In this document: piece after piece, positions 1-8,483 of the stretch
How positions within the stretch are numbered: position 1 is the stretch's first letter
How the letters are laid out: each line of letters begins with the position of its first letter
Origin: a virus
DNA length: 10,798 nucleotides
Virus genome (UHGV): UHGV-1759085
Direction: 5' to 3' (one strand)
Program-made: the position numbers and the translations under genes
Notes under the pieces: model-generated
Database searches by the model: none
What the model was told of the DNA's origin: nothing
Seen by the model: only the letters and a program-made list of their open reading frames with translations

Positions 1-807
1 CTGAGTATTCATTCTTGCAAGTGTGTTATTAACAGACGACACCAAAAGCTCATAATAACCATCACCAACTGGTGATTTAGATAATTGAGAAATTGATGTT
101 GCTCCACGTCCACAATGTACAACTACAGCTCCCCTTCCGCTTAAACGATACCATTCATTGGCAAACTCCCCCCAGGCATGCCCTGAGGATGCAACTCCCG
201 ATGAACTAACCATATTCTGAATTATTGGCTTTATAGTTCCATCCCTGAAATCGTACATTAACGATTTTGGAAGAGGGTCAGGAAAGCCAGATGTATCACC
301 TGATAAAATAGCCTCGCCTACACTATTTGACTGCCCATACGTAACAAATATATCGTATACATCTGGTGACTCAAGATATTCTGTCGCAATAACATTACTT
401 GCTATTTTTGATGCTGTTACTCCAGATATTATTGCTGAACTATTATTTTCTGATAGCCTTCTTTCTAATTGATCTGGATCATACTTCAATACATTTGGAA
501 AATAGAACTGCTGCGAACCATACGCATCATAAACAGCCATAGAATGTCCTTGCACGGTAACGAACTTGGCAATCTGTCCGTTATATACCGGATATCCAGC
601 AGCGTTAATGGTGATTGGTTGAGAAACAGGAACGTGAGAACCGTCCTCGCTCTCCATATAAACCTGAATCTGGTTTTCAGGATTTACAGGATCAGTGTCA
701 ATCTGACCGATATAAATTTTACCATTGGCATTGGCTTTAAATGAACGAGATAAAGTAAATAATTGACTTGGTTGCGATACAACGATATTTGGCGTGATAT
801 CTGGCAT
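1..807 (-). CDS. Tailspike protein, 5' portion only (about 269 codons); P22-type N-terminal head-binding domain followed by a non-P22 domain carrying an SGNH/sialate-O-acetylesterase-like GQSN motif; C-terminus lies beyond the window start
   Basis: Not in the ORF track because it is open at the window edge. Manual minus-strand translation from the ATG at 807..805 (SD-like CAGGAG a few nt upstream) is stop-free to coordinate 1 and begins [50 protein letters not shown]..., which closely matches my recollection of the P22 gp9 head-binding domain. GQSNSVG is encoded at 316..336. Confidence 0.85.
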
Positions 808-978
808 TGATTTGCTCCTGGAATAGAAAAGCTGTGTAAGATATAACTTTCACAGACTTGCATTAAATTCGGTTAAAATTAGTTAATTACTCTGGGTGGA
901 GGGTTGGCTATGCAAAGAGAGATGATGAACATTGCATTCTACATATTTGGTTTTTGCACGTACCTGTTGTTTGCAAAG
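808..978 (-). promoter_or_regulatory. AT-rich intergenic region between the gp16-like ejection gene and the tailspike; holds the tailspike ribosome-binding site and possible sigma70-like elements
   Basis: 171-bp non-coding gap in an otherwise overlapping operon; AT-rich stretch around 840..890; SD upstream of the tailspike ATG. Promoter hexamers are weak matches only. Confidence 0.3.
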
Positions 979-2976
979 CTATTCTGACAACGCATCAGAC
1001 TTAGCCCCCTGCGTCATAGCGTTAATAGCCTTTTGTGCCTGCTGCATGGCTTTCTCAAAAGATGTTGATCCGCGTGGGGTGTTTGCCATTCTGAGCATTG
1101 CATTTCTGAATGGTTCGCCCTCATAGGCGCGAGTAAGAAGTCCGTAGCTTACTGCTGCGCCAGTTGTCGCCGGGTTCATTGCCGTCCCATACCCAATAAT
1201 GAACGGGATAGTTTGCTGCCCTGTGGGTGTTGTTACTGCCGCTTTTGCAGCCTGCTGCGTGGATTGCAGGTAGTTTTTTAATCCTTTCAGATAAGCAGCG
1301 TCCTGCCCCTTAAATGTGATGCCAGTCTGGTTTTGCAGGATGTTAAGCTGACGAAGGAACTGGTCAGGGGATCCGCCAGATTTCTCTATCGCCTTTCCAA
1401 TGATGCCATTGCGCATTTGCGCTCTTCCAACGCGACCAACTGAGTTATACAGCGTCTTAATTTCCGATTTGTTCTTGCTGAATAGCATGTTATTCACAAC
1501 TTCCGGCGTCAGGTCTCCTTTCATGAGAACATTCTTCAGCCTGGTATTCTTTAGTTTCGCCGCTTCGTCAGCGTAGACGGCATTGGCCTGCTGATATTTA
1601 CGGAGAGTATCATTGCCAAGATTCTGACCAATGGCACCATTGATATCGTCGGTCATCGCCTTGTAAACGCGCTGTATGGCGGCATCGGAACGGTTTGGTA
1701 ACACTGGTCGCTCACCCTTCACGTCCATTCTGAACTGGCTGCGCAGATCGCTTAACTGCTTCAAATCCAGATTGACCGGACCATCAGGGCCAGCATTGCG
1801 AACAAGCTCATCACGATATGACTGAAGTTTTGAAATTGTCTCGTTATCAGCTACCTTACCAAGCTTCTGCAGATTAGATATTTCTGTATCAATCTGCTGA
1901 ATTGCTCGTGCAGGCTGAATGTTTACTCCTGCCATAGCATTCTGAACCTGCTCCAGTCGATTACCTGCAGCACGACGAATTCCTGATGTTTTCGCTTTAA
2001 GGCTGTCAATAACAACAGCTGGATCATACTCACCGAATTTATCAGCAAATCTCTGCACCAACTGGCTTCTCGCTTCCTGTTGCGTTGCTCTCATTCCGCT
2101 TGTGCCAGCCAGAGGGATATTTTCTGCTGTAGTCTGCGCCATTTTTCCGACGCGGGAAGTGGGTTGTAACAGGTCTGTGGTGTGCAGAGGTACTCCTTCA
2201 CGCTCTGCAAATCTGATAGCCTGCTGCGCTTCTGGCGCGATAGCACCACGAACGCCACGATAAGCAGCTCCTAATCCACGTCCGGCAGCGTTAATAGCAC
2301 CGCCAGTAAGTACACCAACGCCTAAATCGGTGGCGAGTGCTTCCGCATCATCTTTCGCACTATTTGCTGCAAGTGATCCAACTGCGTTTTCAGCGAGAAG
2401 GCGGGTTGCACCCTGAGCAATTCGACCAGCAAGTGTTGGTGCCTGTGTTGCCGCTCTCTCAACGCCAGCAGGAGTGAGGTAAGGCAATGCTTCAGCAAAT
2501 ACCCTGCCCTCTGTCGTTTGTGGAGTCAGCGCACCTTGCTGAAGGCCAAAGTCCTGCTCTAATCCCTGCGTTGTTACTCGTGGTGCTGGTTGATATGTTC
2601 CATCGCCAATACCGAGTTTACCGCCAGCCCATGCCGCCGCGCTTGTTACAGCATCGGCAACTGATGCAGGTATGTTTGCCACGTTCACGCCAGCCTGCAC
2701 CAGTCCGCGACCAGTCTCTTTTACTGCTTCGCCAAGATCAGACATAAATCCACTTTGCTGTGGTTGTTGCTGTGCTACTGGTTGCTGTGTCTCCACTGGC
2801 CGCACTGATGGCAATGGATAGGCAGCATAGAAAGCTTGCTTAGCCTGCTCTGCATTTTCTCCGGCTTGCGGGGCCACGACTTCATTGAAGTATTGCTCCT
2901 GAGCTTGCGCTTTTTGTTCTGGTGCTAACGCCTGATACTGTGGAGAGGCGATAACATCTTTCCATGCTTTAGCCAT
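979..2976 (-). CDS. Ejection (internal virion / DNA-injection) protein, P22 gp16-like by position
   Basis: 665-aa ORF, last of three consecutive ejection-protein-sized genes before the tailspike, as in the P22 gene order 7-20-16-9; start codon shares a base with the upstream stop (TAATG at 2974..2978); Q-rich low-complexity N-terminal region. Confidence 0.75.
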   Translation of the reverse strand: MAKAWKDVIASPQYQALAPEQKAQAQEQYFNEVVAPQAGENAEQAKQAFYAAYPLPSVRPVETQQPVAQQQPQQSGFMSDLGEAVKETGRGLVQAGVNVANIPASVADAVTSAAAWAGGKLGIGDGTYQPAPRVTTQGLEQDFGLQQGALTPQTTEGRVFAEALPYLTPAGVERAATQAPTLAGRIAQGATRLLAENAVGSLAANSAKDDAEALATDLGVGVLTGGAINAAGRGLGAAYRGVRGAIAPEAQQAIRFAEREGVPLHTTDLLQPTSRVGKMAQTTAENIPLAGTSGMRATQQEARSQLVQRFADKFGEYDPAVVIDSLKAKTSGIRRAAGNRLEQVQNAMAGVNIQPARAIQQIDTEISNLQKLGKVADNETISKLQSYRDELVRNAGPDGPVNLDLKQLSDLRSQFRMDVKGERPVLPNRSDAAIQRVYKAMTDDINGAIGQNLGNDTLRKYQQANAVYADEAAKLKNTRLKNVLMKGDLTPEVVNNMLFSKNKSEIKTLYNSVGRVGRAQMRNGIIGKAIEKSGGSPDQFLRQLNILQNQTGITFKGQDAAYLKGLKNYLQSTQQAAKAAVTTPTGQQTIPFIIGYGTAMNPATTGAAVSYGLLTRAYEGEPFRNAMLRMANTPRGSTSFEKAMQQAQKAINAMTQGAKSDALSE

Positions 2977-4271
2977 TAATCACCCCATAGTGAAGAAAAA
3001 TTACTGCCAGTAGTAGGTTGTTGCGCTGGCGTATTCTGTACTGGCTCCTGATAATCAAACTGTTTTTTAACAGTGCTCAACTTGCTTTCAAGCTGATTTC
3101 TAATCTTTCCGATAGAGTCACGAAAAGCCTTTTCACTCATTTTGGGGCTTAGGGCACCAACCGCATCGGATAATTTTTTACCCTCAGCATCTGAAAGAGC
3201 ACCCATCCCCTTCAGGGACTGCACCATAGGAAGGAATGTTTGAGCTTTAAAGGTGTCGAGCCTTGCTTCAAAGTTAGCCGCATCAGAGCCAGGAACTGTC
3301 GGAAACGCTGAGCGAATTCCTACTGCTTTTGAAAGGCCGGGGCTTTGCTCTATCTCGTTGAGAGAATCAAGCGCGGTGCTGAACGTATCAACTGCACCCT
3401 GAGCGGCGGCCTGCCTGTCAGCGCGGGCTATGTCAGCCTTTTGCCTAACATCTGCCTGTTTCTGTTTTAGCTCTTCAAGCTTTAACTGATTGCTTTCTCT
3501 GGCTATCTGTCTGTCCAGAGCCTTTTCTTGTAATTCTGCTCTTTGTATTTCGCGGGAAAGAGCAGCATTCTGTGCGCTGATGTTCTGTCCACGTATCTGG
3601 ATGTCCTGACCTCGAGCTGTTAGCGCCTCTCCAGCCTGATTGCTGCGGATTGTCTCTGCCAGCCTGCCTCGGTCAATTTCACGACCAGCCATCTTGTCCT
3701 GAACATTGAAGTAGTCAATCGGACCAAGAGCAGCCATCCCAAGGTGATCAACAAACTCACCAAATCCTGAGGGATTCTGCTGATACATCTGAGCAACGTT
3801 GTTAGGATCAACACCGACGCGCGCCAGCTCATTGGCGTTGTTTTGCAGCCAGGATTGCATTGCTTCTGGAGATGATGATGCAAGGCGAGCGCCAGCCGCT
3901 AATGTGCCGATAGAATTGCGCTGGTCTTCATCAATGAATCCCATTCCTTTACGAACAGATTCAATCTGGTCTGGATATTGAGTAGCCAACTGACGCAAAG
4001 CACCGCGATCACCAGACGCATAAGCATTAGCGTATGCCTGCTGAAATTCTTTCTGCCGCTGAGCCTGCTTTTCCTGCTGAAAAACCCCCGCAATACCAGA
4101 AAGACCTTGCAAAGCAGTCAGCCCAACATTGTTAGCGCCTGAACGCTCAATATCATTGTTCTGCCTGATAAGCTGAAGCGTATTGCCGATGCCATTTACG
4201 TTAGGAGCGTTTGAGTTGACGCCACCGATACCAGCCAACAATCCGCCGTTTGTTCCTTGCCAAGTAGCCAT
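2976..4271 (-). CDS. Ejection protein, P22 gp20-like by position
   Basis: 431-aa ORF between the gp7-like and gp16-like genes; AAGGGG SD upstream of the ATG at 4271..4269; long predicted helical, charged central region. Confidence 0.75.
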   Translation of the reverse strand: MATWQGTNGGLLAGIGGVNSNAPNVNGIGNTLQLIRQNNDIERSGANNVGLTALQGLSGIAGVFQQEKQAQRQKEFQQAYANAYASGDRGALRQLATQYPDQIESVRKGMGFIDEDQRNSIGTLAAGARLASSSPEAMQSWLQNNANELARVGVDPNNVAQMYQQNPSGFGEFVDHLGMAALGPIDYFNVQDKMAGREIDRGRLAETIRSNQAGEALTARGQDIQIRGQNISAQNAALSREIQRAELQEKALDRQIARESNQLKLEELKQKQADVRQKADIARADRQAAAQGAVDTFSTALDSLNEIEQSPGLSKAVGIRSAFPTVPGSDAANFEARLDTFKAQTFLPMVQSLKGMGALSDAEGKKLSDAVGALSPKMSEKAFRDSIGKIRNQLESKLSTVKKQFDYQEPVQNTPAQQPTTGSNFSSLWGD

Positions 4272-4280
4272 GATTACCCC

Positions 4281-4973
4281 TTAAAACAACGAGCCAAGCA
4301 GGCCAAGTCCGCCGCCAATTGCCGCACCTAATCCAGTGCCAAGTCCGGGAACAATAGAGCCAAGAGCAGCGCCAGTCATAGCTCCTGAAGCTCCGCCACT
4401 AATTGCTGTCTGAAGGCCTGATGGTTTATTGGCATTAGCAGCGGCAAGTGCTGCGCTTTGCTGTGCAATGCTGCTCATGTTGTTGGCGTACGTCTGCCCG
4501 GCGTTTGCCTGACCTTGCAGAGCACCAAGCCCAACGTTTGCCAGATTGTTGTAATTGCTCATCTGGTTTGATAACCAAGACTGACCGAGAGTCGGCGCGA
4601 TCGTAGCCAGTTGATTGCTTGTAGCTGTCGAACCAAGTCCTCCCGTAGCCTCCGCAGCAGCAAGACTCTGGTAACGAGCCTGACCTGCAAGGTCTTTATA
4701 CTGCTGAGAGTTGTAATACTGATTAAGTGCCTGACCCTGTCCTTCTAAACTGGAAAGGTTCTGAAGCTGGTTAACATACTGCTCCGCAAGCGGCGTGAAC
4801 GGAGCAAGGTTTTTCATGATCGTCTGCCACTGCTGATTTTGCAGGTCTGCGGCATACTTCTGGGCTTCTGCTGCATACTTTGCGCTTTTATCTGAGCCAC
4901 CTTTCCCGCCTTTTTCAGGGCAATAAGGTTCCTCGCCGCGCAGTTTTCTGCCCAGCTTAAATGCATATAACAT
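4281..4973 (-). CDS. Ejection protein, P22 gp7-like by position, with a glycine-rich hydrophobic C-terminal tail
   Basis: 230-aa ORF (P22 gp7 is of similar size, from memory); GGGAG SD inside the upstream gene; C-terminus ...GLGTGLGAAIGGGLGLLGSLF. Confidence 0.75.
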   Translation of the reverse strand: MLYAFKLGRKLRGEEPYCPEKGGKGGSDKSAKYAAEAQKYAADLQNQQWQTIMKNLAPFTPLAEQYVNQLQNLSSLEGQGQALNQYYNSQQYKDLAGQARYQSLAAAEATGGLGSTATSNQLATIAPTLGQSWLSNQMSNYNNLANVGLGALQGQANAGQTYANNMSSIAQQSAALAAANANKPSGLQTAISGGASGAMTGAALGSIVPGLGTGLGAAIGGGLGLLGSLF

Positions 4974-7811: not shown

Positions 7812-8273
7812 TCACGTACTCGGATCATCTTTCTCGATGTAAAACCGATTCCACGTAAACGCGCTTTTGTTACCACTACCGCGAGGCATGTCATTTCGCC
7901 GCTCAAGTGGTGGTATTTTGGTTAAAGCGATACAGATTGTCTGATATGCACTGTCAGCAGCGGTAAGGAGAGCGTCTGACGGCTGAATGACGTTATCCAT
8001 GCACACTTGCACAGCGAGTTTCAAAGCGACGCCATCATTTGCCCATGCAGGGATACCTGAATCATCGTCAGGTAACGGCATGATGCCGTTTTCTGTATCA
8101 GCAAACTGATATCCAAGCTCGATACCTTTAGCCTGCCATGCTGCCATCATGTCTTCGAGGTCATTAATGGCATCTTCAATTGCCTGAGGGTCAGCATCTG
8201 TCAACGTGGCATTGGAATACAGCCCGGCTTTTCGTAAAGCCTTAAGAACGAGATCACCCTTCGTTTTCGCCAT
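7812..8273 (-). CDS. Head-completion / tail accessory protein, P22 gp4-like
   Basis: 153-aa ORF; N-terminus MAKTKGDLVLKALRKAGLYSNATLTDADPQAIEDAINDLEDMMAAW resembles my recollection of the P22 gp4 N-terminus; sits between the coat region and the gp10-like gene. Confidence 0.85.
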   Translation of the reverse strand: MAKTKGDLVLKALRKAGLYSNATLTDADPQAIEDAINDLEDMMAAWQAKGIELGYQFADTENGIMPLPDDDSGIPAWANDGVALKLAVQVCMDNVIQPSDALLTAADSAYQTICIALTKIPPLERRNDMPRGSGNKSAFTWNRFYIEKDDPST

Positions 8274-8442
8274 CTTCTTCCGCCTTAGCCACTTTATGCT
8301 TCGTTGCGGTTTCTTCAGGAGTTTTTACCCAGCCTTTTTTCAGGTGAGATTTAACTTCTTCGTCATCAACAATGATGTAATCGACAGCAAACTGACCACA
8401 GGTGATCATGTTGCCAGGCTTATAGAGCATTGTTCGTGCCAT
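8254..8442 (-). CDS. Small hypothetical protein (62 aa) between coat and gp4-like gene; acidic C-terminus; function unknown
   Basis: ATG at 8442..8440 preceded by GGGAGAAG SD; 3' end overlaps the gp4-like start by 20 nt in another frame. The track's longer 75-aa version, starting at 8481, would begin inside the terminator hairpin with no SD, so the internal ATG is preferred. Confidence 0.5.
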   Translation of the reverse strand: MARTMLYKPGNMITCGQFAVDYIIVDDEEVKSHLKKGWVKTPEETATKHKVAKAEEDGENEG

Positions 8443-8452
8443 TGTCTTCTCC

Positions 8453-8477
8453 CAATAAAAATGGGGCCGAAGCCCCA
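8453..8477 (-). terminator. Candidate intrinsic (rho-independent) terminator or attenuator just downstream of the coat gene
   Basis: Minus-strand reading GGGGC-UUCG-GCCCC (plus 8463..8476) followed directly by AUUUUUAUU, starting 7 nt after the coat stop codon. The stem is only 5 bp but all G-C, with a UUCG tetraloop. Confidence 0.5.
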
Positions 8478-8483
8478 CCAAAA

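Follow-up and report, generated by a model that had tools for sequence, protein, structure and literature searches.

A P22-type tailspike gene joining a gp9-like head-binding domain to a predicted SGNH-family O-acetylesterase

The window analyzed here, a 10,798-nucleotide stretch of the virus genome UHGV-1759085, encodes a P22-type virion module and the first part of a tailspike. The tailspike gene is a stop-free minus-strand frame running from an ATG at 807..805 to base 1, and its 269 codons represent the first 269 of about 634 residues. A preliminary description of this DNA had noted that the gene is cut by the window and does not figure among the listed ORFs; the sole reason for this omission is that the frame continues beyond the end of the window. 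The features of the locus are collected in Table 1.

Table 1. Features of the truncated tailspike gene and the adjoining virion module, in window positions.
Feature	Position	Strand	Remarks
Tailspike ATG start codon	805..807	-	N-terminus aligns from residue 1 with Sf6 gp14 and P22 gp9
Shine-Dalgarno-like AGGAG	815..819	-	7 nt upstream of the tailspike ATG; read from the sequence
P22 gp9-type head-binding (tail-hub anchoring) domain, residues 1-113	469..807	-	Pfam PF09008
Neck/linker and module junction, residues 114-150	358..468	-	P22-like similarity stops, esterase module starts
SASA/SGNH carbohydrate O-acetylesterase domain (predicted), N-terminal half, residues 151-269	1..357	-	Cut by window end
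SGNH block I, G158-Q-S160-N161	325..336	-	Ser160 (nt 330..328) predicted nucleophile; alignment
SGNH block II, G233-R-G235-A-T-S-I	91..111	-	Gly235 (nt 105..103) predicted oxyanion-hole glycine; alignment
Intergenic spacer, 171 nt	808..978	-	Between gp16-like ejection-protein gene and tailspike gene
gp16-like ejection protein, 665 aa	979..2976	-	
Scaffold-position protein, 297 aa	9756..10649	-	
Virion module, in order: 297-aa ORF (scaffold position), coat, gp4, gp10, Sf6-type needle knob, DUF2824 (gp14), gp7, gp20 (Inj_translocase), 665-aa gp16-like		same strand as spike	Pfam

Pfam annotation of the ORFs identifies the rest of the window as a P22-type virion module encoded on the same strand as the spike. 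Two of its members, the gp16-like and the scaffold-position proteins, find no match in the local Pfam search. At the Escherichia fergusonii locus L004, gp16 carries a precomputed PF26808 annotation while the scaffold gene carries PF09306 and cannot be aligned to the scaffold-position ORF of the window. A 75-aa ORF between gp4 and coat (8254-8481, minus strand) matches no Pfam family. The tailspike gene ends the virion operon, following the gp16-like gene, and the same order is found in loci L004-L009. Four independent contigs carry a near-identical full-length spike, P0035, in this slot as their sole Head_binding gene, and P22-like prophages of Proteus mirabilis encode spikes combining Head_binding and SASA domains in the same position. 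The spacer upstream of the spike is 95.5% identical to that of L004 and unrelated to the corresponding regions of the complete E. coli genomes EC6622 and MS 115-1, which encode related esterase spikes. As in Sf6, no immI region (arc/mnt/ant) is present in the window spacer, and a promoter and terminator scan of this spacer gave no signal above chance. The EC6622 prophage carries arc, a second arc-family gene and ant between its gp16-like and spike genes.

Comparison of the window with L004 reveals strongly uneven divergence. Across the tailspike, identity at the DNA level is 99.5-100%. Measured in 200-nt windows, it is 91-99.5% for the gp16-like gene (mostly 94-97%) and drops to 52-76% in bases 3801-4800, which cover the gp20 N-terminus and gp7, whereas the coat and scaffold genes cannot be aligned. 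Since the spike is near-identical while head and ejection genes diverge, one spike cassette is carried on different P22-like head and ejection modules, a textbook example of mosaicism by cassettes. The spike gene and upstream spacer (1-1000) have a GC content of 34-46%, versus 50-56% in the ejection-protein genes (1000-3000), which fits a horizontally exchanged receptor-binding cassette. Immediately past the spike stop, at L004:11923-15699, a converging gene cluster lies between spike and integrase in all four contigs with the 99.6%-identical spike. It encodes a GT2 glycosyltransferase (332 aa), a Wzx/Polysacc_synt-like protein (411 aa), an Acyl_transf_3 (AT3) O-acyltransferase (340 aa) and a 104-aa ORF that is called in one contig. 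The cluster is absent from the EC6622 and MS 115-1 relatives. With spike and AT3 gene located on one element, such a prophage encodes a spike predicted to remove acetyl groups as well as a putative conversion gene for adding them.

The first 113 residues of the window protein form a P22 gp9-type head-binding domain. PF09008 (Head_binding) matches residues 1-113 over its whole profile (1-113/113) with 219 bits (cut-off 24) and E=1.4e-65. Searches against solved structures align residues 1-120 with Sf6 gp14 (PDB 7sg7, E=5.5e-61) and residues 1-115 with P22 gp9 chains (E about 5e-49 to 1e-48). The domain is 72-89% identical to those of P22 gp9, Sf6 gp14 and HK620 gp9, which share gene position, virion module and the YDPDQ hinge (residues 109-113, nt 483..469) at the end of the head-binding domain. 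This bears out the preliminary description, which had recognized a P22 gp9 head-binding domain ending at YDPDQ in the first ~113 residues.

Similarity to P22-type tailspikes ends shortly after the hinge. The earlier view that positions 1..468 do not resemble the P22 endorhamnosidase holds: the resemblance to P22, Sf6 and HK620 stops at about residue 120, and that to P22-type tailspikes in general goes no further than about residue 120-190. A tblastn search covering 50,697 phage records aligns about 200 P22-like phages, but over the first 113-146 residues only (189 in the case of Sf6), and among the best 25 of 28-30 matches no P22-type tailspike PHROG extends past about residue 174 or into the esterase domain. 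The same tblastn search detects gp076 of Klebsiella phage KP8 at residues 107-269 with 62% identity. As the KP8 similarity starts at residue 107 and the P22-like similarity stops, the junction sits immediately after YDPDQ, in agreement with the domain swap at a modular junction that had been suggested initially. Residues 114-150 are a short neck and recombination junction. Helices are predicted in the neck at residues 111-118 and 132-143 with low pLDDT, and the motif L..L...NS.V.I.GV.A precedes the esterase on other adaptors too. A longer version, L..LA..NS.V.I.GV.A ... YLE.PDVYD, is kept ahead of the esterase in all adaptor types (P0005, P0039, P0047, P0052). By analogy with the conserved inter-module motifs reported for receptor-binding proteins of lytic phages (PMC10408124), the neck motif represents a candidate recombination linker.

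The receptor part of the P22, Sf6 and HK620 spikes is a right-handed beta-helix endoglycosidase, whereas the window spike instead carries a predicted alpha/beta SGNH esterase with a small beta domain behind it. Against the Pfam SASA family (PF03629, of which we take DUF303 to be the former name), the window fragment reaches 18.7 bits, under the cut-off of 24.8 bits, because it encodes only profile positions 2-116/226 and half of the domain is cut off. We therefore turned to full-length relatives. A homologue search seeded with the C-terminal region of the EC6622 spike identified P0035, an E. fergusonii/E. coli 'phage tailspike protein' of 634 aa that is identical to the window protein at 268/269 residues (99.6%); the genes differ by two nucleotide substitutions in 807 nt, one of which causes the single amino-acid change (A163V). 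P0035 matches Head_binding with 217 bits and SASA with 48 bits over residues 151-387 and profile positions 2-222/226, and its esterase domain extends to about residue 395. The EC6622 and MS 115-1 spikes (635 and 634 aa, both annotated 'phage tailspike proteins'), whose DNA is 87-88% identical across the junction, match the entire SASA profile with 54.8 and 52.7 bits, and the Proteus spike P0085 reaches 75.6 bits. NCBIfam gives no match for either the fragment or its full-length relative. A phmmer search of PDB sequences with the esterase and C-terminal part finds only 1zmb, at E=0.076.

Conservation of the catalytic blocks was assessed by aligning 44 homologues, whose identity to P0035 spans 24-94%. 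Invariant in all 44 are Y157-G-Q-S160-N161, G164, S207-x-G209-H210, G235, G283-E284 and H372-Y373, and H281, Q282 and D286 are nearly so. The GQSNSVG motif at residues 158-164 (nt 336..316), initially read as the nucleophile block of an SGNH hydrolase, thus corresponds to block I within an invariant YGQSN. The remaining blocks, which the preliminary description had proposed to look for, are found in full-length P0035: G235 for block II and, beyond the window end, H281-Q-G283-E284-T-D286 for block III and E369-G-V-H372 for block V. E369 is present in 30/44 homologues while the others carry a nearby Asp, and the EC6622 group reads TD-GGVH. Using an esterase-domain-only profile aligned to PDB sequences, GQSN of P0035 aligns with GQSN of At4g34215 (2apj, E=1.7e-9), GRG235ATSI with ASGGTAI of 2apj and EGGSsI of 1zmb, HQGE284TD with YQGESD of 2apj and HQGESD of 1zmb, and E369GVH372Y with the canonical DGLHF of the SGNH lipase 1yzf. 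By these alignments, all four SGNH blocks are present, I and II within the window and III and V past its end. For the window copy, we infer blocks III and V from the 99.6%-identical P0035, and the 3' remainder of this copy could be disrupted. Codon 163 (window 319-321) reads GTA in the window, giving GQSNSVG, versus GCA, giving GQSNSAG, in the closest relatives (≥98% identical). GQSNSAG is also found in most of the 44 aligned homologues, and no exact match to the V163 allele was found in the GTDB species representatives.

The predicted structure of P0035 supports the family assignment. In an AlphaFold2 model built on the 44-sequence alignment, the alpha/beta domain (150-395) and a beta-rich domain (420-634) both reach a pLDDT of about 90, while the N-domain is poorly modelled with low pLDDT in this monomer prediction. 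The model displays the alpha/beta/alpha fold of SGNH hydrolases. A fold search retrieves gp63.1 of E. coli phage G7C with a score of 15.1 and places NanS among the top matches; Foldseek concurs and adds Moo19 gp82 and SFP21A gp09. Against viral predicted structures, the best Foldseek match is KP8 gp076 (E=4e-75), and the spikes of ViI (E=5.8e-11), Vi06 (E=2e-8) and PP99 are also matched. The structure 9h4u is that of a bacterial CE20 esterase and does not come from a phage. Proteus P0085 and P0035 have the esterase in common, BLAST similarity between them ends at residue 386, and their C-terminal domains are unrelated in sequence. The comparison suggests that modules are also exchanged at a second junction, behind the esterase, and that the distal domain contributes to specificity.

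In fold and profile, the spike is matched best by the SASA esterases NanS (3pt5), prophage NanS-p, A. thaliana At4g34215 (2apj), C. acetobutylicum 1zmb, CE20 XAC1771 (7kmm) and mammalian SIAE. These have the GQSN / GG / QGESD block pattern in common with the spike but are soluble or secreted metabolic enzymes rather than virion parts, with sequence identities of only 14-20%. G7C gp63.1 (PDB 4QNL; Prokhorov et al., 2017) is likewise an SGNH-fold esterase in a podovirus tailspike. According to the summary in PMC13123978, it takes an O-acetyl group off LPS and is essential for infection; it deacetylates the O-antigen and leaves it undepolymerized (PMC13123978, PMC11654681). No sequence homology between gp63.1 and the esterase domain was found; gp63.1 serves as the functional model for the window spike. 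Experimentally shown esterase or deacetylase spikes and fibres also include gp55 of Pectobacterium phage PP99, which deacetylates a 6-deoxytalose side chain of the O-polysaccharide (PMC6989608), Moo19 gp82 and B2 gp49 of Shigella phages, which depend on O-antigen acetylation (PMC11654681), and SGNH receptor-binding proteins of Klebsiella prophages. PP99 and Moo19 are structural matches, but distant ones (Foldseek E 1e-4 to 1e-6) with other adaptors and from other phage families. PMC3220722 describes a DUF303 esterase domain in Vi01 Tsp2 aimed at the acetylated Vi capsule and cites Pickard et al. (2010) for the conserved acetyl esterase domain of Vi-phage tailspikes such as Vi01/ViI Tsp2 and Vi06, where it is grafted onto different phage morphotypes. 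The Vi-phage spikes, whose substrate is the Vi capsule of S. Typhi, differ from the window spike in showing no BLAST-level similarity and in having Ackermannviridae, T7-like or sipho adaptors; none belongs to a P22-like temperate phage. The closest homologue from an isolated phage is KP8 gp076 (YP_009837525), which is 53% identical over residues 114-634 and has the neck motif too. It is known by annotation alone (note 'SGNH-hydrolase family') and differs in its unrelated N4-like 300-aa N-terminal adaptor, its Klebsiella host and its likely capsule target.

We consider it probable, at roughly 0.8, that window 807..1 encodes the sole tailspike of a P22-like (Lederbergvirus-type) Escherichia prophage, consisting of a gp9-type head-binding domain and a predicted SGNH/SASA O-acetylesterase. 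The analysis establishes the domain assignments, the conserved catalytic blocks, the predicted fold, the genomic position and the module exchange; activity, substrate, trimer geometry and C-terminal role are predictions. In the mechanism that we propose by homology and precedent, the N-terminal domain would dock a trimeric spike on the gp4/gp10 tail hub. The spike would bind an O-acetylated surface polysaccharide, most likely O-antigen. Ser160 as nucleophile and His372 as base, positioned by Glu369, would then take off acetyl groups, with the oxyanion hole presumably formed by the backbone of Ser160 and Gly235 together with block III (G283-E284-x-D286). Engagement could be reversible and processive, so that the O-antigen layer may be crossed without a cut in the glycan backbone, as for G7C gp63.1 and PP99 gp55. 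The choice of O-antigen is a guess because capsule is the most likely target of the module's relatives in Klebsiella.

The same enzyme might accordingly face another substrate, a capsule or exopolysaccharide such as K-antigen, colanic acid, a Vi-like polymer or O-acetylated polysialic acid. We regard this as unlikely, while several observations point in its direction: the closest isolated-phage homologues all belong to Klebsiella phages (N4-like KP8 and Kpn16-P2, and T7-like phages of about 40 kb), for which capsule is the usual primary receptor, and the Pfam family is named for sialate esterases, with NanS a top fold match. For most characterized P22-like tailspikes from Escherichia, Shigella and Salmonella the target is O-antigen, an exception being the endosialidase spike of CUS-3, which acts on the K1 capsule, and this background counts against a capsule substrate. 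So does the gene cluster that follows the spike in the E. fergusonii/E. coli contigs, whose GT2, Wzx-like and AT3 genes are of the O-antigen modification type. Precedents from other phages point both ways. A capsule substrate is favoured by the correlation with K-loci seen for SGNH receptor-binding proteins in Klebsiella prophages (PMC13123978) and by the Vi-phage spikes, which belong to the same Pfam family and have the Vi capsule as substrate (PMC3220722). It is opposed by the esterase spikes of G7C, PP99, Moo19 and B2, which act on O-antigen (PMC13123978, PMC6989608, PMC11654681).

It is improbable that the SGNH domain is catalytically inactive and serves lectin-like receptor binding only. 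In favour of this reading, the block V acid varies (E in 30/44), and A163V in the window copy lies two residues past GQSN, the block with the nucleophile. Val163 also occurs in the distant homologues P0085 and P0088, however, and the substitution is therefore probably tolerated. A Ser-His dyad is reported to be what NanS and similar SASA relatives use, a further point against an inactive domain. The nucleophile Ser, the block II Gly, the block III G-E pair and the His are all invariant in the 44 sequences, down to 24% identity, a pattern expected under selection for catalysis.

There is similarly little chance that the spike is bifunctional, with the C-terminal beta-rich domain (about residues 415-634, beyond the window) cleaving glycan and the esterase acting as a helper. 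This domain is confidently folded and matches no Pfam family, and its replacement by unrelated sequence in the Proteus spikes is what one would expect of a specificity determinant. At about 215 aa it is nevertheless too small for a typical tailspike beta-helix depolymerase, and neither a glycosidase nor a lyase match was found for it in Pfam, PDB sequence or fold searches; fold searches of the P0035 model revealed no resemblance to beta-helix depolymerases. Deacetylation alone is moreover reported to suffice in G7C and PP99 (PMC13123978, PMC6989608).

Two further readings were rejected. A NanS-p-like prophage 'moron', that is, a soluble sialate O-acetylesterase serving lysogen metabolism, would account for the Pfam family and fold in common with NanS and NanS-p and for the 'sialate O-acetylesterase' names at NCBI, but it is very improbable given the complete P22 head-binding domain, the tailspike slot after gp16, the status as sole Head_binding gene of the prophage and the consistent placement of the module behind a virion adaptor (PF09008, PF18668, PF03906 or an N4-like N-terminus). 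GQSN as a chance motif in a conventional beta-helix glycosidase tailspike, which the sub-threshold SASA score of the fragment alone might have allowed, is ruled out by the invariance of YGQSN in the 44 homologues and by full-length P0035 scoring above the SASA cut-off. The esterase interpretation of the preliminary description is thus largely supported, and none of the outcomes it had named as speaking against that interpretation (no esterase-family match after residue ~115, absence of the other blocks, a beta-helix glycosidase) was encountered. The idea is less novel than that description implied: tailspikes with an esterase from this Pfam family have been on record from the Vi phages onward. 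With Vi phages, G7C gp63.1 and PP99 gp55 already known to deacetylate, the window spike is a further, rare case.

What the locus adds is that the P22 junction after YDPDQ accepts a receptor module that is not a beta-helix, is predicted to be non-depolymerizing and is common to N4-like and T7-like Klebsiella phages. If the spike is active, it would make a tractable model of the P22 type, in which the genetics are good and the tail machine is well understood structurally. With such a model one could ask how a podovirus gets across the O-antigen layer and triggers DNA ejection by deacetylation alone, and it would show the interplay of prophage O-acetyltransferases and esterase spikes in serotype conversion. 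A tentative and rather doubtful extension holds that a P22-like podovirus uses its sole spike for purely processive deacetylation without O-antigen cutting, and that prophages with the near-identical spike both erase and write the acetyl marks of their own receptor. Were this true, the virion spike as eraser and the lysogen's AT3/glycosyltransferase cluster as writer would control adsorption and superinfection exclusion, in contrast to the P22, Sf6 and HK620 model in which the spike cleaves O-antigen en route to the membrane.

The esterase and C-terminal module is rare and is fused to at least five adaptors: PF09008 (P22-like), PF18668 (Tail_spike_N), PF03906 with or without PF18668 (T7-like), the N4-like KP8 N-terminus and an unassigned 240-aa N-terminus. 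Complete E. coli genomes contain the module in 6/5,426 cases, with the P22-type head-binding domain present in 989. Among the 50,697 phage records it occurs in 13, from Klebsiella N4-like, Klebsiella T7-like and Vibrio phages, and in none from an isolated P22-like phage. We found no paper joining a P22-like tailspike with an acetylesterase and none on the Pan3 tailspike. A search of 1.84 billion cluster representatives yields only 53 matches at E<=1e-30; the majority are 500-1000 aa long, with the esterase beginning 150-300 residues in. Several relatives are called 'sialate O-acetylesterase' by NCBI, and annotation under this name or as only 'phage tailspike protein' misses the host-range implication.
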